Sequence record: PQ826431.1
DNA: 64,000 nucleotides
From: a phage
Reading direction: 5' to 3' (one strand)
The translations under genes were made by a program, and so were the position numbers. Shown here in pieces: positions 1,899-47,454 of the stretch (position 1 is its first letter; each line of letters begins with the position of its first letter). The notes under the pieces were generated by a model. It did not search any database and was not told where the DNA came from. It saw only the letters and a program-made list of their open reading frames with translations.

Positions 1899-2134
1899 TA
1901 ATCTTCCCAGTCATTGCCCTCGGTAGAGTGAACTAAAGCTCGCACGATACCACCGTAATCTACTGCCTGATTTGCAGCATGTTCGGCATAAACTTCAATG
2001 GCTTTTTTGAAGAAAAGAGCAGTAGCTGCTTCAATATTATCCATTTCGCCATCTACGTCAGTAGAAAGTGAAAGGTTGAGGCTTTCATCTACTTCATCAA
2101 AATCAATAGCCACTGTCATAATTAGTTTACCCAT
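1898..2134 (-). CDS. hypothetical acidic protein (78 aa)
   Basis: Small ORF abutting neighbours. Confidence 0.4.
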   Translation of the reverse strand: MGKLIMTVAIDFDEVDESLNLSLSTDVDGEMDNIEAATALFFKKAIEVYAEHAANQAVDYGGIVRALVHSTEGNDWED

Positions 2135-2146
2135 AGTTCACACTCC

Positions 2147-2656
2147 TTAAACAAAATAAAATGGTTGAGAGAGGCCCAAACGATTCTTTGGGTCGTATAC
2201 ATACCAAGCGTATGCTGTCTTATCTGTTCCACCTGCAACAAACGAAGGCCGTTCTGAAAGGACTATAAGGTTTGTTGGTGGATTCTTTTGATGGAACTCT
2301 CGTCGTTTCTTTGACTCCAAGAAGCCCAACCGAAGAAGATAAATACAAACATCCGCCTCTTTTAAGCTCTTTTCCAAGAACTCCATTGCTAACTTAAATG
2401 GAGGATTTGTGATTATAATGTCGGGACGATTTTCCCATTCATGACTAAAATAATCTTTACCTTCTTCAAGTTCGCAATATTCTGAACCTTCAGGAAAATG
2501 GCGATAAATCGCTTCAGCTTCACCTCTGCAAGGTTCTGCAAAAACCCAACCTTCTTCCTTTAGATTTTTGAAATCTATAACACTAAACAAACTATTGATT
2601 GCTTTTTGCGGTGTCGGATAATAATCGCTCGTTGGGCGATCATAATCTAATGCCAT
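2147..2656 (-). CDS. putative DNA N6-adenine methyltransferase (small phage Dam-like)
   Basis: Translation contains 'IIITNPPF' (NPPF/DPPY-type catalytic motif IV of N6-adenine/N4-cytosine MTases); size about 170 aa like small phage Dam enzymes; assignment is motif-based only. Confidence 0.4.
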   Translation of the reverse strand: MALDYDRPTSDYYPTPQKAINSLFSVIDFKNLKEEGWVFAEPCRGEAEAIYRHFPEGSEYCELEEGKDYFSHEWENRPDIIITNPPFKLAMEFLEKSLKEADVCIYLLRLGFLESKKRREFHQKNPPTNLIVLSERPSFVAGGTDKTAYAWYVYDPKNRLGLSQPFYFV

Positions 2657-3152
2657 CTAAAATCTCCTCTTTTGTAATATTATCCAACTCTTTAAAGGAT
2701 GAAATCTCGTTTAATAATCCTATTTGATCAGCTTCTAGAGGATAAGTGTTTTTATCTGTTTTTCTAGACAGAATATCTTCAACAAACTTATCAATAGCCA
2801 AAGAAGAATCATAAAATTTTAAAAGTTGGTAATCCATAGGAGATATTTTGTCATCTCTTAGAAATATTTCTAACATGTTTTCAGGAGTATCATGGTTTAG
2901 TTTATGTTCACCAAAAATATTAACTTCATAAACATCTTTGCCAAACCAACGTTTCTTCTTTTCAACAGTATAGGTTTTTGCCACCAGACCATCTAAACAG
3001 TTTCTTGCCCTCTTACATGTTTGACGGTAAGAGTGGATAGCGCCTTCAACAAACTTAGCAGGAACTTGTAACATTATTAATCTCCTATGTTTAAGAAATG
3101 CCCCCGAAGGGGGCAGTTTGTTAAATAGCGGTTCCTTCGAAATCCGCCACAT
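2640..3152 (-). CDS. hypothetical protein (170 aa)
   Basis: ORF preceded (minus sense) by GC hairpin and AGGAG RBS. Confidence 0.5.
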   Translation of the reverse strand: MWRISKEPLFNKLPPSGAFLKHRRLIMLQVPAKFVEGAIHSYRQTCKRARNCLDGLVAKTYTVEKKKRWFGKDVYEVNIFGEHKLNHDTPENMLEIFLRDDKISPMDYQLLKFYDSSLAIDKFVEDILSRKTDKNTYPLEADQIGLLNEISSFKELDNITKEEILDGIRL

Positions 3153-3813
3153 TTACGAGATTAATATTTTCAGATTTAGAAGTCAAGTTGTTTTCTGCAA
3201 CAGATTTTTCTTCAGTATCCGCCTCGTTACCTGCCACGTTACGAGGTTCTTCTTCACCGTAGGGATTACCGAATTTCAAAAGATTGATCAATTCTTCTTT
3301 GGAGAAGTTTTCTAAATCATCATCTGTTAATTCAATAATCTCGTCTTGTTCTTCAATAAATGTTTCACCACCAGAAAAAGCATCTCGCTTTTTAGCTACT
3401 TCCATAGCCTGTTCTGGTGTTGCTCCTGCATCAAGAGCAGCTAAAGCAAAGTCTGACCCGCTTCCTACCGCATAATATTCTTCATCAATCGGATATGCAC
3501 GTGTTGGGTTGTTACCTTCGTGCAGGAAAATACGTCCATCTGGATGAACAACAAGTGCAATAAACTCTTCATCTTCTTTATCTGGATCAGAGTGAATCAT
3601 CAAACCAGGGACAGCATCACGTGCTGCTTCGCACTGTAGATTTTGTTCAAACCATTGAAAGAAAGAAAGCACGGAGGTCAGACGACCAGCACCGCCTACA
3701 AGGTAATCTCCAATTTTTCGGACCTTTTTGAAATTAATAGAATCTACACGTCCACCAAAAGTTACCTTACCGTCACTCAAAATCTTATTTTTGGTCGCAA
3801 TAATTGTCGTCAC
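3121..3813 (-). CDS. Ntn-hydrolase / proteasome-HslV-like peptidase with acidic C-terminal tail
   Basis: N-terminus 'MTTIIATKNKILSDGKVTFGGRVDSINFKKVRKIGDYLVGGAGRLTSVLSFFQWFEQNL' parallels HslV/proteasome beta N-terminus (Thr right after Met, GxxGxxxD, 'AVGSGSDFALAAL' near C-domain); about 50 aa acidic C-terminal extension. Confidence 0.55.
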   Translation of the reverse strand: MTTIIATKNKILSDGKVTFGGRVDSINFKKVRKIGDYLVGGAGRLTSVLSFFQWFEQNLQCEAARDAVPGLMIHSDPDKEDEEFIALVVHPDGRIFLHEGNNPTRAYPIDEEYYAVGSGSDFALAALDAGATPEQAMEVAKKRDAFSGGETFIEEQDEIIELTDDDLENFSKEELINLLKFGNPYGEEEPRNVAGNEADTEEKSVAENNLTSKSENINLVNVADFEGTAI

Positions 3814-41499: not shown

Positions 41500-41528
41500 T
41501 TGCATAAACTTTGTTTTTGATGTATACT
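41500..41528 (+). promoter_or_regulatory. sigma70-like promoter (TTGCAT-N17-TATACT)
   Basis: Read from sequence; overlaps the track-annotated start of the next ORF. Confidence 0.4.
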
Positions 41529-41960
41529 AAAAAGGAGATACAAGTGTTACTAGATCAATTTACTCTCCTTGATCTAACTGAATACCAAGGCCGTAGACGA
41601 GTCTACAAAGAGGCAGTTGGTTCAGTTATTGCTAACTTAGAAAGTAGTGTAGAATATGAACCATTTACTATTGAAGCGGCAAGCTTACAACCGATATCTG
41701 GTAAAACACTGAATGCACTACCTGAAGGTTACAGATCTAAGGCTCAATATAGTTTCTGGACTAAAACAGAAATGAAGGGGTTACAACAAGGAACAGAACA
41801 GTTATCAGATCAGATATTGATAGATGGTAAATGGTATTCTGTTTATTCCCTTAAAGATTGGACCAGAACATCTTTCTTAGTCCATCATCACTGTGTTGCG
41901 ATATTAGACGATCAAAACAACTCCTGGTCTTATGGAACAGAAGGAGGAAACTTTGGCTAA
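41511..41960 (+). CDS. tail completion/neck protein (putative); true start probably GTG near 41544
   Basis: AAGGAG RBS precedes the GTG at about 41544; the track start lies inside the promoter-like sequence. Confidence 0.4.
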   Translation: MFLMYTKKEIQVLLDQFTLLDLTEYQGRRRVYKEAVGSVIANLESSVEYEPFTIEAASLQPISGKTLNALPEGYRSKAQYSFWTKTEMKGLQQGTEQLSDQILIDGKWYSVYSLKDWTRTSFLVHHHCVAILDDQNNSWSYGTEGGNFG

Positions 41961-42591
41961 TATTTACCAACAAATAGAAGCATACGAAAATGCCATCTAC
42001 TTAAATATAGGTGGCTTCCTTCAAGAATTAGTGGGGTTGCCAGTCTATGTTATGGATAAGCCATTCATTAAACCGGATACTCCTTACCTAGCACTACGTA
42101 TTATCACTTCCAGCGATTCTGGAGGTTGGTCTTACCGAAGCTCTATTCAAAATGATATGTATTCCTACGAGATGGATAATACCTACGAGATTGAACTTGT
42201 AGCCTATCGTGGAAGACCTACCACTTTGATGAGCTATGTTCTGGCTGCTCTCCGTGGTGCAGAGGAATTAAAATACAAACATCTCTATTCTAAAGGTCTT
42301 GGTTTTTTAGGAGCCTCTAATATAGCTCAAGCCAATACAATTGTAGACGGAGATAAGACTGAATTAAGAGCGCGTATGGTTATGACGTTCAACACTCGTA
42401 TGAGTATTGAAGATATTGCTACTACACCAATAGAAGCAATCAACATGCACATCCGTTCATTCAGAGATAGTTACAATGATCCTATCCCTTTAGATTTAAT
42501 TCTAAACAGGGTTTATGCAATTACTTTGGTTCCAGGCGAATACTCGTCAGTTAATCAAAATGGATCATTATTTAACAACCCTACCGAATAA
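41932..42591 (+). CDS. tail/neck protein (putative)
   Basis: 219 aa; start uncertain (GAAGGAGG then TTG about 41953). Confidence 0.4.
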   Translation: MEQKEETLANIYQQIEAYENAIYLNIGGFLQELVGLPVYVMDKPFIKPDTPYLALRIITSSDSGGWSYRSSIQNDMYSYEMDNTYEIELVAYRGRPTTLMSYVLAALRGAEELKYKHLYSKGLGFLGASNIAQANTIVDGDKTELRARMVMTFNTRMSIEDIATTPIEAINMHIRSFRDSYNDPIPLDLILNRVYAITLVPGEYSSVNQNGSLFNNPTE

Positions 42592-42625
42592 ACTCATTGG
42601 AATTAAGTTTCTAACAGGAGCATAA

Positions 42626-43999
42626 ATGGCAACTTTTCGTGAAAAGGTAGCAACCGTAACTTTACTGTATGGTGCTACATCAATTCGTGAAACCCAGTTC
42701 GATATTCCCCTGATCCTTACAGGTCAGAACGTAACTGGCGAAGCGATTCAATATTACTCTTCTTCCGATGCACTTTTGGAAGCAGGTTATGGATTAAATG
42801 ATCCAGCGTATATTATGGCAGTCAAACTGTTTAACGGTTTGTTCCCACCAGATCAAGTCATGGTTGGTAAGCGTGAAGTTACAAACTTTACTCTAACTCC
42901 AATCGTAGAAGATAGTGCAACTTACACAATTACCATCAAAAATGGTACCAAGAAAAAAGAATTTAAATTCATTGCTGATGACACTGCAACTGCACAAGAG
43001 ATTGTAGTTGGTCTGACTGAAATGATCAATGCAGATCTTGTTTATGGCCCACTGTTTACAGTAGCTAACAACGGCGCTGCAATGACTTTCACTCCAGTAG
43101 AAGGTAAGTTTGGTTCTATTGACAGCACAGGTTTCACTCAAGAAACTGTCTATGCTAATGCTATTACGGAAGATATTGCTGCTCTGCATGATATTGATAG
43201 TAGCTGGTTCTGGACCCTTTCAGATTCCCATGAAACAGAAGATGTTCTAGCTTTGGCTGCATGGGTAGAAGAGAATGATAAAGTTTACTTCTTCTCTAGC
43301 TCTGAACCTGGAATTAAAACGAAAGCAGAAGATAACGTTCTGGAACGACTGAATGACCTCGGTTATAATAACACTTGCTTTGCTTTGTGGATGACCGATG
43401 CAGATTCTGTATTCCCAGAAGCAGCAGTTGTTGGTGCAATCTGTTCTCGTCAGCCTGGTTTAACTACTCTTCACGGTAAAACACTGGTAGGTGTAGAGAT
43501 CGAGAAACTGGATCAGACTTCGGAAAACAATATTGTTCAACAGAACGGTAACATCTATCGTAAAGAGCATGGAACTCTGTTCTATCGTGATGGATTGATG
43601 GTTAGCGGTTTCTTTGTTGACTATGTTGTTCATGCTTTGTGGTTTAAAGCTCGCACAGAAGAATCACTGTTTACACTGTTTAAACAACAGTCTATGCTGG
43701 GTGGTGGTGTTCGTGCTACTTCAAACGGTCTGGCTTTGATTCGACAAGCTGTTCTGGCTAACCCGATCCAAGTAGGTATCCTCAACGGTTCCATCGCTAA
43801 TGAAGTTGTTACTTCTGAAGAGACTGGTTTGCGTGTCGATCTGAAACCTATTGTTTATATTCCTTCTCGTGCTGATATGACTGATGCGCAAATCAATGCT
43901 CGTCTGGTCGATGGGATGAAGATTGAATATGTTTACGCTGGCTTCTTCCATTACGTTAAAGTTCAGGTCAACGTCCTGACTAACCGTACTGCAAACTAA
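42626..43999 (+). CDS. tail sheath protein (putative)
   Basis: 457 aa ORF immediately followed by a 159 aa ORF, chaperone pair and tape measure, i.e. sheath-tube-chaperone-TMP order of contractile tails; no motif-level proof. Confidence 0.5.
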   Translation: MATFREKVATVTLLYGATSIRETQFDIPLILTGQNVTGEAIQYYSSSDALLEAGYGLNDPAYIMAVKLFNGLFPPDQVMVGKREVTNFTLTPIVEDSATYTITIKNGTKKKEFKFIADDTATAQEIVVGLTEMINADLVYGPLFTVANNGAAMTFTPVEGKFGSIDSTGFTQETVYANAITEDIAALHDIDSSWFWTLSDSHETEDVLALAAWVEENDKVYFFSSSEPGIKTKAEDNVLERLNDLGYNNTCFALWMTDADSVFPEAAVVGAICSRQPGLTTLHGKTLVGVEIEKLDQTSENNIVQQNGNIYRKEHGTLFYRDGLMVSGFFVDYVVHALWFKARTEESLFTLFKQQSMLGGGVRATSNGLALIRQAVLANPIQVGILNGSIANEVVTSEETGLRVDLKPIVYIPSRADMTDAQINARLVDGMKIEYVYAGFFHYVKVQVNVLTNRTAN

Positions 44000-44045
44000 T
44001 ACGGCGGGGGTTAAGCCCCCGTTATCAAAATAAAGAGGATCTATA

Positions 44046-44525
44046 ATGGATAAAATGCTTACTGGCGTAATGGCCTACGACCCATCTCAAGTTATCCTTT
44101 CATTAGGTGGTTGGGAACCGTGGGGTTTTGCGGCTGATACTAAAATCGTTATTGCTAAATCTAACGATATTATCAACCCTTATTCAGGGACTGATGGTGA
44201 CGTTTCACTAGCTTTGAGTCGTAACCGTTTGGGAACACTCACAATGTCTTTGCAACGCACATCTCCAGCTAATGAAGTACTTGCAACATATGCACAAACA
44301 ATGTATTCTACTCGTCAAGTAGCATTCAGCGTTTACTTGGAAGACCCACGTGGCTATTACATTAGCACGATTGGATGGATTCAAAGTCAGCCTGAAGATA
44401 CTATTGGCGAAATGATTACAGAGAACCAATGGGTTATTGGTCTTAAAGATGCAAGCCTTCTGCGTAATGAAGTTGGTGTAGGTTTGAGCACCCTTAACTC
44501 AATCTCTGCTCTGACAATTCAATAA
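44046..44525 (+). CDS. tail tube protein (putative)
   Basis: 159 aa, position; followed by terminator-like hairpin. Confidence 0.5.
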   Translation: MDKMLTGVMAYDPSQVILSLGGWEPWGFAADTKIVIAKSNDIINPYSGTDGDVSLALSRNRLGTLTMSLQRTSPANEVLATYAQTMYSTRQVAFSVYLEDPRGYYISTIGWIQSQPEDTIGEMITENQWVIGLKDASLLRNEVGVGLSTLNSISALTIQ

Positions 44526-44531
44526 TAAATA

Positions 44532-44555
44532 AAGGGCAGAAATGCCCTTTTTATC
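44532..44555 (+). terminator. rho-independent terminator/attenuator after tube gene
   Basis: AAGGGCA-GAAA-TGCCCTT hairpin followed by TTTTAT. Confidence 0.6.
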
Positions 44556-44570
44556 ATTAGAGAGGAAAAT

Positions 44571-45053
44571 ATGTCACAAGAACAAGATAACACAATTCAA
44601 AAATATGCTCGACCAGAAGAAGTAGTTGAGATTCCGTTAGATGGAAACAGATCTGTTACTTTCCGTATTATGAAGTGGAGTCCATCTAAAGTGTTTGACA
44701 GGATTCCAGAATTGGGTAGTGTTCTGGTTGTTCCTATGACTATGTACAGCACAGCAACAATGTCCGCAGACGAAGACCTTGAGTCACGTATTGCTATGGC
44801 ACTGATCCAACTTTTTGCAGGTTTGGAAGAAAAGAATTTAACTGTCTTTTTGCGTAAAATTTTAGATGAGGTTTATACTCAAGACGGTTATAACGTTGCA
44901 GAAAATTTTGACGAATTATTTATGGCTCACCCAGAACTAGTGTTAGATCTTACTGCTAAAGTTCTGGAGGTAAACTACGGCCCTTTTTTCAAACGAGGTT
45001 TCGGAAAACTGTTCACACAGCTTCAGGCGATGACGAGTTTAGCAGCAAATTAA
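44571..45053 (+). CDS. tail assembly chaperone (G-like), zero-frame product
   Basis: 160 aa between tube and tape measure; contains slippery U_UUU_UUC near its 3' end. Confidence 0.55.
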   Translation: MSQEQDNTIQKYARPEEVVEIPLDGNRSVTFRIMKWSPSKVFDRIPELGSVLVVPMTMYSTATMSADEDLESRIAMALIQLFAGLEEKNLTVFLRKILDEVYTQDGYNVAENFDELFMAHPELVLDLTAKVLEVNYGPFFKRGFGKLFTQLQAMTSLAAN

Positions 45054-45319
45054 CACCTGCGATTGAACATGCTATCGACACAGCAACGAAAACCCTTACT
45101 TTGAAGTGGTATGAGGTTATTCTTTGCAAAGTCGTTAAAGATACCTCGGAAACACTGAAAACATTGGATAACTACGGTGTAGATTATCTTTTAAAACTAT
45201 ATGAGTATTTAACATACGAAGAGTATGTTGAAGCCATGTATGTTAAAGACACTTCAATAAAGAGAAAACATCAAAACCAGACAAATAAAATGTCAGATTT
45301 GTTTAAGAAACTTGTTTAA
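44984..45319 (+). other. predicted -1 programmed frameshift site (T_TTT_TTC at 44984-44990) and -1 frame extension giving a GT-like chaperone fusion
   Basis: The -1 frame is open from the heptamer through the 45101..45319 ORF (which has only a TTG start in the track). Confidence 0.5.
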
Positions 45320-45339
45320 TCCAACACGAGGAACATACT

Positions 45340-47328
45340 TTGTTAGAAATTAACGCCTCCAAAATTAGTAACGTGGTTACGTTTAAGGTGGACAAGAACA
45401 GTCTCAAGGAAGCAAAAGATGCCGTGTTGAGTGTTCAGAAGTTTGCAAATAAAATGCAACCCACTATGAACATGACCAAGTTTAGACAACAAATGAAAGA
45501 GATTGAGCGTGAACTTAAGAAAGCTCAAACTCAAAGTCAAAAACCTATGCGAGCACCTACTCCCGCTGGAGCGGGTGCTCCTGTAGGTGGATCTGGCAGA
45601 CCAAGAACTCCTAAAACCCCGCAAGGAAGAGAAGAAGAAAAAGCTCGTAAAGCGGCTGAACGCGAAGCTAAAGCAGCAGCACGTAGGGAAGACTTAGGTA
45701 ATCTTCGTTTGCAAAACTTTAACTACCGAGCAAAAGCATTTAGTAAAGCCAGCCCTGGCGCTATACAAGAAGCTAGAGACGTTATGGGTAAAGCTGTAGA
45801 GCAATACAAAAAGGGTGAAATAACTCTTCAACGTATGAACCAAGCTCTTGCTCACCAGTTAGATGCCTTACGCAGATCTCATCGTGAAAAGAATGCTGAA
45901 ATAGAAGACGAGGTTCGCGGTCGTCGCCGTATTCGTAGAGAGCTAGAAGCAGAAGCTAAAATGCGTATACGTATGCGAAATCGTGAACTTAGAGATATAG
46001 AACGCAACCGTAAGCGTGAATTAGCTCAACAAAAACGTGATCGTGATCGTCGATATGGACAATTAAAAGAAGGTGCAGCAGGTCTTAATCCACGTATGAT
46101 TGCATCCTCTTTGATAGGTGCTGGGCTGTTTGCAGGTGGTTCTGTAGTTGGTAACACGTTGATGAATACTAACGAAAGAATTAAACTTGTAAGTCGTGGC
46201 GCTGAAAACGTTCAGACAAACGCCAACGCTATTTTGGCAATGACAGCTTGGGGTGAACAGAACGGTGTAGACTCTGCAAATATTATTAAATCAATAGATA
46301 ATATTAAAGACGTTCGTGAACGTCTTGGTAATACAGTTTTAGCCTCAAAATGGAATGAGAAAGAAGGGAAGTGGAAAGGCGGTGATAATGGCATAAATGA
46401 CATTATGAACTTGTTTGGATGGAATCCAGAACAGCTTAAACCTTTACAGAACGACCCTTTAGCTTTTATTCAGGCTACTGTTAATGAAGGTGAGCGTCGA
46501 GGTATGAACTCTGCTCAAATCGGGCGACTTCTTGAAAACCTTGGTGACGACCTTATGCACTACCAGCGCATGTTTAGTAAAAACGGCGAAGGGTATAATG
46601 AGGTATTGAAAATGCTTCAAAGAACAGGTGCAACATTAACTCAAGAACAAATAGATGCTTCTAAAGAGTTTACTCGTTTTGCTGCAACAGTTCAGCTTGT
46701 AGGTCAAGGTATGCAGAACCATTTCTTAGAGGGTTTTGTGAAAGCCTTACCTAAAGATGATTCTTGGTTGGATAACGTTAAAGTGCTAGATCAGTTTGCC
46801 AAAGATTTAGGTGAAGAACTTGGTAAAACAACAGTTCAACTTGGTGGTTTTGCTAAAGAATTGGGAGATGGTTTCGGATCTTTTACCAATTGGCTTAAAG
46901 AAACATTCCCAGATACCTTCGGAGACAACACAGATCCTAATAAATCTATGGCACAAAAAGCATACGAGGCAACGCAAAGTGGAGACAGTAACCCTGTAGC
47001 AGATTGGTTGTACAATTTAACAGGTATTGATACACAAGATATTGGTCGTATGTGGAGAGGAGAACAAACAAGGACACGTGCTTTTGGATTTGGTAATCCT
47101 CTTGAAGATTTACGTGAATCAGCCTATACACCTAACGTAAGTTTGGCTCGTAATCAACCTGTTGTTGAGAATACGGTAGCAATACCAAGTGATCTTATCA
47201 AAGTTACGATCAGTCCTTCTTCCGAGTTTGGAAATATTCTTGATGCAAGAATTCAAAATAGCGGAAATAGCATTTTCCAACGTTTGTCTCTTTCAACTCT
47301 AAGTGGACAATCTAGCACTGGTGGTTAA
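45340..47328 (+). CDS. tail tape measure protein
   Basis: 662 aa, N-terminal charged coiled-coil region, Gly-rich and TM-like central segment, position after chaperone pair; TTG start. Confidence 0.65.
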   Translation: MLEINASKISNVVTFKVDKNSLKEAKDAVLSVQKFANKMQPTMNMTKFRQQMKEIERELKKAQTQSQKPMRAPTPAGAGAPVGGSGRPRTPKTPQGREEEKARKAAEREAKAAARREDLGNLRLQNFNYRAKAFSKASPGAIQEARDVMGKAVEQYKKGEITLQRMNQALAHQLDALRRSHREKNAEIEDEVRGRRRIRRELEAEAKMRIRMRNRELRDIERNRKRELAQQKRDRDRRYGQLKEGAAGLNPRMIASSLIGAGLFAGGSVVGNTLMNTNERIKLVSRGAENVQTNANAILAMTAWGEQNGVDSANIIKSIDNIKDVRERLGNTVLASKWNEKEGKWKGGDNGINDIMNLFGWNPEQLKPLQNDPLAFIQATVNEGERRGMNSAQIGRLLENLGDDLMHYQRMFSKNGEGYNEVLKMLQRTGATLTQEQIDASKEFTRFAATVQLVGQGMQNHFLEGFVKALPKDDSWLDNVKVLDQFAKDLGEELGKTTVQLGGFAKELGDGFGSFTNWLKETFPDTFGDNTDPNKSMAQKAYEATQSGDSNPVADWLYNLTGIDTQDIGRMWRGEQTRTRAFGFGNPLEDLRESAYTPNVSLARNQPVVENTVAIPSDLIKVTISPSSEFGNILDARIQNSGNSIFQRLSLSTLSGQSSTGG

Positions 47329-47335
47329 TAAAATA

Positions 47336-47358
47336 CCTCGCTTCGGCGGGGTTTTTTC
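47336..47358 (+). terminator. rho-independent terminator after tape measure gene
   Basis: CCTCGC-TTCG-GCGGGG hairpin followed by TTTTTT. Confidence 0.7.
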
Positions 47359-47365
47359 GTTTCCC

Positions 47366-47395
47366 TTGACACGAAGTTTCTATATGTGTTACAAT
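47366..47395 (+). promoter_or_regulatory. sigma70-like promoter (TTGACA-N18-TACAAT)
   Basis: Immediately after terminator, upstream of baseplate genes. Confidence 0.45.
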
Positions 47396-47454
47396 AATCA
47401 ATATGGGAAGATCTTGCATCTTCCTTTTGGCATTATCATTACTACGAGGTTATC

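Follow-up and report, generated by a model that had tools for sequence, protein, structure and literature searches.

A probable programmed −1 ribosomal frameshift site for tail assembly chaperone synthesis in an Escherichia coli phage related to phAPEC8

In an E. coli Phapecoctavirus that resembles phAPEC8, the tail assembly chaperone gene very probably contains a programmed −1 ribosomal frameshift site of the lambda G/GT type, as judged from its sequence and those of its relatives. The window, by which we mean the whole 64,000-nt stretch of record PQ826431.1 that was analysed, comes from a contractile-tailed myovirus with a 150-kb genome and 99.9% identity to phage ETEC-TG. An earlier note on this DNA had proposed a G/GT-type frameshift upstream of the tape measure gene. 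Gene order, the Pfam assignment of the chaperone, the phase of the slip heptamer, the overlap of the two frames, the absence of a start for the second frame, and conservation all fit this proposal.

The tail gene neighbourhood and the slippery run

The chaperone gene lies within a series of tail genes (sheath, tube, chaperone, −1 ORF, tape measure) whose order is identical in 17 relatives (Table 1). Its 160-aa product matched Pfam PF21822 (Phage_TAC_15) with 84.3 bits (cut-off 22, E 1.3e-23), the match spanning profile positions 3-125 of 127 and chaperone residues 29-143. It also matched PHROG 3840 'tail assembly chaperone' (E 2.8e-55). A Shine-Dalgarno (SD) sequence, GAGAGGA, is present at 44560-66. 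The tail tube gene gave a weak match to Pfam KPP10_Orf10 (24.4 bits, just below the 25-bit cut-off), and its counterpart is labelled 'potential tail tube' in Klebsiella phage 05F01. The tail tube protein is the presumed binding partner of the chaperone T domain. The terminator-like hairpin between the tube and chaperone genes likely reduces the chaperone and tape-measure transcript relative to that of the sheath and tube. A pattern scan also detected a terminator-like hairpin after the tape measure gene (47335-47352).

Table 1. Features of the tail gene region, in window coordinates
Feature	Position	Strand	Basis or remark
Tail sheath gene	42626..43999	+	Pfam DUF3383; PHROG 205 'tail sheath', E 2.9e-100; tail sheath in phAPEC8 annotation
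Tail tube gene	44046..44525	+	PHROG 280, E 3.1e-35
Terminator-like hairpin and T-run, between tube and chaperone genes	44531..44550	+	Pattern scan; ARNold terminator in phAPEC8 annotation
Tail assembly chaperone, short form (G-like / TAC-N), 160 aa, zero frame	44571..45053	+	
Dual-coding overlap, zero and −1 frames	44960..45053 (94 nt, 31 codons)	+	−1 frame opens at 44960; zero-frame stop at 45051-53
Shine-Dalgarno-like GGAGG	44966..44970	+	13 nt 5′ of T_TTT_TTC, 10 nt 5′ of C_CCT_TTT
Overlapping heptamers	C_CCT_TTT 44981-87; T_TTT_TTC 44984-90	+	Phase checked
−1 frame extension (T-like / TAC-C), 109 aa and stop	44990..45319	+	Open frame; PHROG 16039 and 10409
GenBank-type 'hypothetical protein' ORF (phAPEC8 gp105)	45101..45319	+	TTG start without SD
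Tape measure protein gene	45340..47328	+	PHROG 16051, E 0; SD GAGGA 5′ of TTG start

The earlier note had placed a T_TTT_TTC heptamer at 44984-44990, 21 codons before the stop of the chaperone ORF. The window reads 44980 GCCCTTTTTTC 44990, so that TTTTTTC occupies exactly these positions. In ORF 44571-45053 (start 0 mod 3) the corresponding codons are CCT (44982-84), TTT (44985-87), and TTC (44988-90). T_TTT_TTC is therefore in the X_XXY_YYZ phase required for a tandem −1 slip, and both position and phase were verified. Twenty sense codons separate TTC from the TAA at 45051-53, which agrees with the earlier count within counting convention. The complete slippery run is C_CCT_TTT_TTC (44981-44990), in which either of the two overlapping heptamers would lead to an identical fusion protein. 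Both U_UU.U_UU.C and C_CC.U_UU.U are members of the efficient H_HH.U_UU.Y class in E. coli (PMC4066793).

These two were the sole X_XXY_YYZ heptamers in the 31-codon overlap. Across window ORFs, in-frame heptamers of this form occur about once per 240 codons (71 in 17,082 codons), so that, for one genome taken alone, chance occurrence within the overlap gives no better than p~0.12. Overall, TTTTTTC is depleted (17 observed against 34 expected), and its sense-strand occurrence at 44984-44990 is the only one across all 65 ORFs. Comparison supplies the decisive evidence for the slip site: every T-run-bearing relative examined has the heptamer unchanged and in phase.

The −1 frame and its missing start

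An open −1 frame runs from 44960 to its stop at 45317-19 (119 codons) and takes in the 45101-45319 ORF, while the +1 frame is closed (7 codons). This bears out the earlier description of a −1 frame running open from the heptamer through a downstream ORF that has no good start. A slip at the heptamer would fall at chaperone residue 140, and the resulting fusion would keep nearly the entire PF21822 domain. How far the −1 frame stays open past stop codons was considered as a statistic and rejected as non-discriminating, because overlap of a stop in the −1 or +1 frame is common between adjacent genes. What does discriminate is the 30-codon upstream extension of the −1 frame, together with the absence of a start.

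The first possible start of the −1 ORF, and the sole candidate start of the downstream ORF, is the TTG at 45101. Were this codon used, by direct initiation or by termination-reinitiation, the locus would hold two independent genes (phAPEC8 gp106 and gp105) and the T-run would encode Phe-Phe and nothing more. Such an arrangement is how phAPEC8, ETEC-TG, phi92, and others are annotated, and the adjoining tape measure gene is likewise TTG-started. We nevertheless find it highly improbable. The 20 nt 5′ of the TTG (CAGCAACGAAAACCCTTACT) have no SD sequence, scoring +0.1 kcal/mol against the anti-SD, whereas neighbouring late genes, the TTG-initiated tape measure gene included, score −5 to −12.7 kcal/mol. 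The zero-frame stop lies 48 nt upstream of the TTG, which is unfavourable for coupling. Starts chosen by annotators or gene callers vary among close relatives, with at least 7 different positions annotated or predicted and none conserved, and the ORF is left uncalled in three records. In every lineage, peptide conservation and the open frame also reach back at least 39 codons from the TTG and over the 'intergenic' gap. Finally, two genes would leave the synonymous invariance of the heptamer without explanation. We judge that the 45101-45319 ORF is not an independent gene.

If the −1 frame is instead entered by frameshifting, its peptide would form the C-terminal part of the chaperone fusion. 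The peptide is conserved over 14 lineages, residues upstream of all annotated starts included, and follows the pattern RFR, then a G/S-rich linker, then P..A...A....SLxW(Y/F).... An AF2 model of the extension is all-helical past an 11-residue low-confidence N-terminus (pLDDT 72.8, pTM 0.41). Foldseek comparison of this T-part model with BFVD returned one 73-aa homologue plus noise and supported no functional inference. A sequence-profile search of the PDB gave one match, which was marginal (5ir0_A 'ORF19', E 0.049), and an NCBIfam search gave no meaningful match. Searching 5.8 billion proteins with the T part for a single-ORF chaperone/T fusion was uninformative, with 18 matches of 64-85 aa and a chaperone domain in 0 of them.

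We inspected 24 GenBank/RefSeq records, from Phapecoctavirus, Justusliebigvirus, Vequintavirinae, and outgroups, and none has the fusion annotated. In its place they show either a spurious 'hypothetical protein' whose start is arbitrary or a 290-nt gap left without annotation. Public records mis-annotate the chaperone gene as two separate genes; the correct feature for the predicted 249-aa fusion would be join(44571..44990, 44990..45319) with ribosomal_slippage. A literature search for frameshifting in the phAPEC8, phi92, rV5, or phiTE chaperone genes found nothing. In the record of Pectobacterium phage CB7, 'MS/MS confirmed' is attached to the sheath, tube, and tape measure proteins, and neither the chaperone nor the downstream ORF carries this remark. 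The main value of the present finding lies in annotation, within a large and therapeutically popular phage group. The site, very probably an ordinary G/GT-type frameshift, opens no new biological question.

Conservation of the slip site among relatives

For comparison we used 14 divergent GenBank representatives, with chaperone identity down to about 29%. T_TTT_TTC was invariant and in phase in 14/14 of these, in 44/44 IMG/VR loci, and in phiA019 and FKP3 (14 + 44 + 2 loci, an Aeromonas phage among them). All 14 + 44 + 4 relatives have an open −1 frame of 108-149 codons that ends just 5′ of the tape measure gene, with the +1 frame closed. Only two distant relatives in this set lack T_TTT_TTC. 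Rheinheimera Barba18A has lost the T-run and carries G_GGA_AAG, the heptamer of lambda, in phase 3 codons downstream; Vibrio S4-7 carries A_AAT_TTT as an alternative heptamer.

Codon choice was examined at amino-acid-invariant degenerate columns. Outside the overlap, 9/9 such columns contained mixed codons, among them Phe columns with TTT/TTC counts of 8/6 and 6/8. At and around the site, 4/5 columns were codon-invariant (Fisher test, p about 0.005). F149 was TTT and F150 was TTC in 14/14 representatives, and the codon before this pair was always NNT. Codon invariance was seen for N145, F149, F150, and G154. As the FF dipeptide is also conserved in the protein, protein constraint explains some of the nucleotide conservation. 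Judging from these comparisons, the slip site and the two-frame layout are conserved among diverged relatives beyond protein-coding need.

An invariant T6 run might also be read as a site of transcriptional slippage, a general phenomenon (reviewed in PMC5009743), at which RNA polymerase would insert an extra U and yield the same ...GPFFQTR... product. The run is homopolymeric, and homopolymer runs are depleted elsewhere in the coding sequences of the window. We regard a transcriptional origin as very unlikely. Six residues is short, whereas productive slippage by bacterial RNA polymerase usually involves runs of about 8-9 or more. Transcriptional slippage should also favour longer runs, yet none exceeds T6 in about 60 relatives. 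Neither the 3′ C nor the X_XXY_YYZ phase varies, and the distant homologues have G_GGA_AAG or A_AAT_TTT, which are ribosomal slip motifs and not homopolymeric.

Downstream of the heptamer, GGTTTC at 44997-45002 is near-invariant in the 14 representatives: GGTTT is invariant, and base six is A in rV5 and G in L036. This conservation could point to a −1 slip at a single-tRNA tetramer, either U_UUC in GGU_UUC (44999-45002) or A_AAA (45005-45008), in place of or besides the heptamer, with the junction ...FFKRGF-RKTV.... U_UU.Y and A_AA.A are measurably shift-prone in E. coli, but the best heptamers outdo tetramers about 10-fold (PMC4066793). The slip-prone form is not conserved (GGT TTA in rV5, GGT TTG in L036), and the spacing from GGTTTC to the heptamer varies by 3 nt between subfamilies. 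GGTTTC is dual-coding (zero frame G-F, −1 frame R-F-R), which accounts for its invariance. A tetramer slip is accordingly given almost no weight here, and the heptamer is retained as the predicted slip site.

Possible stimulators, proposed mechanism, and known systems

The GGAGG upstream of the slip site forms a duplex with the anti-SD of −10.7 kcal/mol. A GGAGG-like element (≤ −9.3) was present in all Stephanstirmvirinae-like contexts and in rV5-like phages, and missing (−0.5 to −2.7) in the Certrevirus and Mydovirus lineages; it is not family-wide. The element at 44966-70 may stimulate slipping, and its occurrence is lineage-specific. GGAAG and CTCGAAGT are altered forms of GGAGG relevant to this putative 5′ stimulator.

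A downstream stimulatory hairpin or pseudoknot, which the earlier note had listed as a feature to search for, was not found by folding, RNAalifold, or Rfam, methods that do not cover pseudoknots. The 90 nt downstream, folded for 10 lineages, were no stabler than shuffled sequences (z-scores −1.0 to +0.8). RNAalifold on four Stephanstirmvirinae gave a consensus of −2.7 kcal/mol and no covarying 3′ helix near the site, and an Rfam scan for a 3′ structure gave no match. The only RNAalifold consensus helix pairs the slip site itself with downstream GGAAAA and would therefore be unable to act while a ribosome occupies the site. Frameshift sites with a 3′ hairpin or pseudoknot (IS3 and dnaX type) have a stable conserved structure 5-9 nt downstream, unlike the window site. 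Such a structure is not a requirement of G/GT-type sites.

Slipping might alternatively be tuned by a non-classical element: the nascent ...NYG(P/C)FF peptide, an action of the dual-coded GGUUUC on the ribosome, or a switch between lineages with and without the 5′ SD-like element. NNT_TTT_TTC followed by near-invariant GGTTTC 6-9 nt downstream is frozen in at least 2 phage subfamilies and the Aeromonas phage, and the SD-like element is found in Stephanstirmvirinae and rV5-like phages and not in Certrevirus. We consider such tuning unlikely. If true, it would make this phage family a natural series for stimulator-independent −1 frameshifting.

The mechanism that we propose is that of lambda. 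The majority of ribosomes would read 44571-45053 to produce the 160-aa chaperone, the G-like short form. A minority would step back 1 nt with P- and A-site tRNAs on C_CCU_UUU_UUC (44981-44990). The tRNA-Phe pairing would change from UUU/UUC to UUU/UUU or, in the alternative register, tRNA-Pro would move from CCU to CCC with tRNA-Phe remaining on UUU. Slipped ribosomes would read the −1 frame to the stop at 45317-45319, yielding a 249-aa fusion of chaperone residues 1-140 (...EVNYGPFF) and a 109-aa helical C-terminal part (QTRFRKTV...KKLV). Slip efficiency is probably low and fixed, set mainly by the heptamer; in this lineage the GGAGG 13 nt upstream, paired with 16S rRNA, may assist. By analogy with lambda gpG/gpGT, many short-form and few fusion molecules would coat the product of the adjacent downstream tape measure gene. 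Through its additional C-terminal domain the fusion would recruit the tail tube protein, so that tube polymerisation begins on the tape measure, and neither chaperone form would be retained in the virion.

The likeness to lambda gpG/gpGT (mechanism and 30:1 ratio reviewed in PMC5009743) is extensive. Both have two overlapping ORFs flanked by the major tail (tube) gene and the tape measure gene, a second ORF in the −1 frame without its own start, and an X_XXY_YYZ heptamer that precedes the first ORF's stop by about 20 codons and needs no 3′ structure. A major short product and a minor fusion are made in lambda and predicted here. The heptamers differ (G_GGA_AAG in lambda, U_UUU_UUC with overlapping C_CCU_UUU in the window), and one relative, Barba18A, uses exactly that of lambda. 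The window phage also differs in being a contractile-tailed myovirus with a 150-kb genome, in having a chaperone of Pfam PF21822, and in its possible 5′ SD-like stimulator. The lambda system was reportedly described by Levin, Hendrix and Casjens in 1993 and by Xu, Hendrix and Duda in 2004, 2013, and 2014 (cited in PMC5009743).

Phage P2 E / E+E′ (FETUD tail operon; Christie et al. 2002, cited in PMC5009743) shares with the window a contractile tail and a chaperone pair between the tube and tape measure genes. The −1 slip there is reported to use the T-rich heptamer T_TTT_TTG, the last base of which differs from that of the window. P2 is temperate, with a small genome, and its chaperone family is presumed unrelated in sequence. 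E. coli dnaX (gamma/tau) likewise combines a heptamer with an internal SD-like element, which Larsen et al. in 1994 reportedly placed about 10 nt 5′ of the slip heptamer, and is a precedent for GGAGG 44966-70 as a stimulator. A strong 3′ hairpin is also needed in dnaX, where efficiency is about 50-80%. In contrast, the window has no detectable 3′ structure, and its SD-like element is not family-wide.

PMC12846349 (Dec 2025) proposes −1 PRF at an invariant GTTTTT in TAC-N of Vandenendeviridae (Pseudomonas phage Adele / Pakpunavirus) and Andersonviridae (Mooglevirus etc.). It places both as relatives of Vequintavirinae and Stephanstirmvirinae, and its chaperone locus analysis reportedly covers Vandenendeviridae and Andersonviridae only, not Stephanstirmvirinae or Vequintavirinae. 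As there described, these clades share with the window a TAC-N followed by a routinely mis-annotated 'hypothetical protein' ORF, a −1 frame that is unbroken across the 'intergenic' gap in all genomes, and a poly-T motif near the 3′ end. GTTTTT itself does not occur at the window site, which reads CCCTTTTTTC, with C and not G before the run (CCT TTT TTC). It does occur in Vequintavirinae relatives (TGTTTTTTC), where TGT TTT TTC contains GTTTTT. A shared mechanism and homology are likely, taking the GTTTTT clades as described in that paper. On that comparison, our analysis extends the poly-T chaperone frameshift proposed for Vandenendeviridae and Andersonviridae to sister clades, with T_TTT_TTC as the shared invariant.

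Position of the locus among the tail genes

Across 42600-47400, the window shares 99.9% identity with Escherichia phage ETEC-TG and ~99% with phAPEC8, contractile-tailed E. coli phages of 150 kb assigned to Phapecoctavirus (subfamily Stephanstirmvirinae). The sheath-tube-chaperone-tape measure identities of the genes here place the slip site in the exact position usual for G/GT-type frameshifts. Terminator-like hairpins flank the unit formed by the chaperone, the T part (its -1 frame extension), and the tape measure, and may hold the chaperone-to-tape-measure transcript below the level of sheath and tube. A near-consensus sigma-70-like promoter follows the second hairpin; hairpins and promoter-like element together suggest a separately tuned sub-operon inside the late tail genes.

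Features of the chaperone locus and its surroundings in the window
Feature	Coordinates	Strand	Details
Tail sheath	42626-43999	+	PHROG 205, E 2.9e-100 (profile search)
Tail tube	44046-44525	+	PHROG 280 (profile search)
Tail assembly chaperone	44571-45053	+	Pfam PF21822 Phage_TAC_15, 84.3 bits vs cut-off 22; PHROG 3840
Tape measure protein	45340-47328	+	PHROG 16051 (profile search)
Terminator-like hairpins	44531-50 and 47335-52	+	
Sigma-70-like promoter	47366-47395	+	TTGACA-18-TACAAT with TG extension
10-tRNA cluster	29603-31645	+	Met, Arg-UCU, Ser-GCU, Asn, Thr-UGU, Gly-UCC, Gln-UUG, Pro-UGG, Ile-GAU, Met

Start assignments differed between records. The tape measure begins at TTG 45340, with a GAGGA Shine-Dalgarno (SD) sequence, in phAPEC8, 126 nt further in for ETEC-TG (about 45466; position 3367 of L002, one of the homologous loci compared), and 114 nt in for Ro121c4YLVW. 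TTG 45340, with its SD and directly after the T-part stop, looks the most plausible start. The listed plus-strand starts TTG 41511 (ORF 41511-41960) and ATG 41932 (ORF 41932-42591) have no SD (+1.4 and -2.4 kcal/mol). In phAPEC8 both genes are annotated from later starts (locus 1945 and 2354, near window positions 41544 and 41953), which are probably the true ones. The tRNA cluster occupies the gap separating the leftward from the rightward gene block. Its tRNA-Pro(UGG) could decode CCU in a C_CCU_UUU register, and tRNA-Phe is absent from it.

The predicted slip site and its conservation

Nucleotides 44980-44990 read GCCCTTTTTTC. The chaperone codons at this site are CCT (44982-84), TTT (44985-87), and TTC (44988-90), so that T_TTT_TTC (44984-44990) sits in X_XXY_YYZ phase. 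C_CCT_TTT (44981-87), one codon 5', is likewise in phase, and a slip in either register yields the same protein. The earlier note had placed the heptamer 21 codons before the chaperone stop, with the -1 frame open through the downstream ORF. Both points were confirmed, the first within counting convention: 20 codons separate TTC from TAA (45051-53), and the open -1 frame, 119 codons long, runs from 44960 to its stop at 45317-19. The +1 frame is closed.

These two heptamers are the only X_XXY_YYZ sequences in the 31-codon overlap of the zero and -1 frames. Window ORFs contained 71 in-frame heptamers of this form in 17,082 codons (~1 per 240 codons), and the chance of one within the overlap is p~0.12; evidence from this single genome puts the slip site only weakly beyond chance. 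TTTTTTC, rarer overall than expected (17 observed vs 34 expected), occurs once on the sense strand across all 65 window ORFs, at the slip site. H_HH.U_UU.Y, covering U_UU.U_UU.C and C_CC.U_UU.U, is among the most efficient E. coli motifs; U_UU.U_UU.C shifts at >0.1% without any stimulator and is under-represented in E. coli genes (Sharma et al. 2014, PMC4066793).

The homologous locus was collected from 14 diverged GenBank phages (phiWec181, phi92, Klebsiella 05F01, an Avunavirus, rV5, SSE121, Hena1, KpS8, CB7, pEp_SNUABM_01, PBES02, UPEC06, F4M1E, and Vibrio S4-7), spanning chaperone identities of 82% to about 29%. In all 14, an open -1 frame of 117-141 codons begins ahead of the chaperone stop and ends shortly before the tape measure. 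All but Vibrio S4-7, which has A_AAT_TTT there, share an in-phase T_TTT_TTC aligned in one column. An IMG/VR scan added 44 loci, all 44 with in-phase T_TTT_TTC and a -1 frame open for 108-149 codons; one of the two patterns behind the scan contained FF, but as amino acids, which left codon choice free of pre-selection.

A codon alignment was also compared. Outside the overlap, each of the nine degenerate columns with an invariant amino acid has mixed codons; TTC and TTT divide 8/6 and 6/8 in the two other invariant Phe columns. At the slip site, F149 is TTT (14/14) and F150 is TTC (14/14), while T is the last base of the codon before them (CCT or TGT) in every case. Codon-invariant columns thus numbered 0/9 outside the overlap vs 4/5 at the site (Fisher p about 0.005, a descriptive value because lineages are not independent). 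The more distant Aeromonas phage phiA019 keeps AGT TTT TTC. In Rheinheimera phage Barba18A the T-run is gone (TGT CTA ACT TCG), and G_GGA_AAG, the heptamer of lambda itself, lies three codons further on, also in phase; the -1 frame there is 126 codons long. If frameshifting, not Phe-Phe, is the conserved property, a homologous gene is expected to carry another slippery heptamer close to the original position, as here. At the sequence level, these comparisons settle that the putative slip site exceeds chance.

Transcriptional slippage on the T6 run would give the same protein product. It is disfavoured, as the run is short and never lengthened, its 3' C and phase are invariant, and the replacement heptamers of distant relatives are non-homopolymeric.

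The compared loci held further irregularities. In Barba18A, an inserted HNH endonuclease gene (locus 2132-2770, minus strand) separates the chaperone -1 ORF from the tape measure, breaking an otherwise universally conserved adjacency. Pectobacterium phage CB7 has two extra ORFs (CB7_21 and the 316-aa CB7_22; locus 2300-3370) after the T-part ORF and ahead of the annotated tape measure; the related loci of PBES02 and F4M1E lack both. About 23 'Campylobacter phage' records (host C. jejuni; MG065689 A110a, MG065650 B15, MG065652 C11, and others) are essentially identical to E. coli Stephanstirmvirinae/Vequintavirinae (75-100% chaperone identity; B15 99.7% DNA), and one 'Acinetobacter phage' record, OP562383, likewise matches these phages. 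Their host labels look doubtful.

The downstream ORF and predicted products

As the earlier note had observed, the downstream ORF has no good start. Its first start codon, TTG 45101, has no SD complementarity upstream (+0.1 kcal/mol); neighbouring real starts reach -5 to -12.7 kcal/mol, and the TTG-initiated tape measure gene -5.9. Independent initiation at TTG 45101 is also disfavoured by the -1 peptide, which is alignable in 14/14 lineages from the slip site on (FF, x(1-3) RFR, a variable-length G/S-rich linker, P..A(I/V)..A...A....(S/T)L.W(Y/F), then more). Conservation reaches upstream of all annotated starts, across the 'intergenic' gap after the zero-frame stop. Those starts are scattered, falling by genome at T-part residues -1, 30, 39, 46, 48, 61-65, 78, and 85. 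In a 5.8-billion-protein collection, gene-caller products of the T part span 64-85 aa with at least 7 different starts among close relatives, and three records leave the ORF uncalled. By these sequence criteria, the downstream ORF is probably not an independent gene.

Frameshifting would produce the 160-aa chaperone and a minor 249-aa fusion, composed of residues 1-140 (ending ...EVNYGPFF) followed by QTRFRKTV...KKLV. As the Pfam chaperone domain spans residues 29-143, the fusion would retain essentially all of it. The T-part model, of moderate confidence (pLDDT 72.8, pTM 0.41), has a low-confidence N-terminus (residues 1-11), which continues the G/S-rich linker present in relatives, and long helices at 13-51, 56-62, and 64-108. 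A fold search with this model gave no informative match. A joined CDS is absent from all 24 GenBank/RefSeq records that were inspected. The result has little surprise value and serves mainly for annotation repair, as join(44571..44990, 44990..45319) with ribosomal_slippage.

Candidate stimulators and relation to known systems

The downstream stimulatory hairpin that the earlier note had proposed seeking did not appear: in pseudoknot-free folding, the 90 nt 3' of the site were no more stable than shuffles (z -1.0 to +0.8, 10 lineages). RNAalifold, also pseudoknot-free, found no covarying helix after the site, and Rfam had no match. A near-invariant GGTTTC lies 6 nt downstream in Stephanstirmvirinae and 9 nt in Vequintavirinae. 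Dual coding explains it better than an RNA role: the zero-frame reading of the element is G-F, the -1 reading is R-F-R, and its spacing moves by a whole codon. GGU_UUC may allow a single-tRNA slip as a minor event, but the slip-prone form of the motif is not conserved (TTA in rV5, TTG in compared locus L036).

Upstream, GGAGG (44966-70) lies 13 nt 5' of T_TTT_TTC and 10 nt 5' of C_CCT_TTT, with anti-SD pairing of -10.7 kcal/mol. In dnaX, an internal SD at this spacing stimulates -1 frameshifting. Similar elements occur in all Stephanstirmvirinae-like contexts and rV5-like phages (-9.3 kcal/mol or lower) and are missing from the Certrevirus and Mydovirus lineages (-0.5 to -2.7 kcal/mol). GGAGG is at best a candidate lineage-specific enhancer.

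Gene context, phase, open -1 frame, startless ORF, and conservation uphold the G/GT-type frameshift of the earlier note, as observation and as interpretation; a lambda-G/GT-type programmed -1 ribosomal frameshift is the best explanation. Tail chaperone frameshifts are a well-known class (Xu, Hendrix & Duda 2004). This class has been reviewed (PMC5009743): in lambda, the tape measure protein is coated by G and by the G portion of GT, whose T domain brings in the major tail protein, at a G:GT ratio of about 30:1. By analogy, chaperone and fusion may function here as in lambda.

A December 2025 paper uses similar evidence to argue that chaperone genes of Vandenendeviridae and Andersonviridae shift into the -1 frame at an invariant GTTTTT; it names Vequintavirinae and Stephanstirmvirinae as related clades, whose chaperone locus appears to lie outside its analysis (PMC12846349). 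TGTTTTTTC, carried by the Vequintavirinae relatives, fits this motif. CCCTTTTTTC, carried by the lineage of the window, does not fit it; the common invariant is T_TTT_TTC. Our literature search found no description of this frameshift in phAPEC8, phi92, rV5, or phiTE-like phages. As read from sequence, the predicted frameshift is a previously unannotated case of a well-known class.
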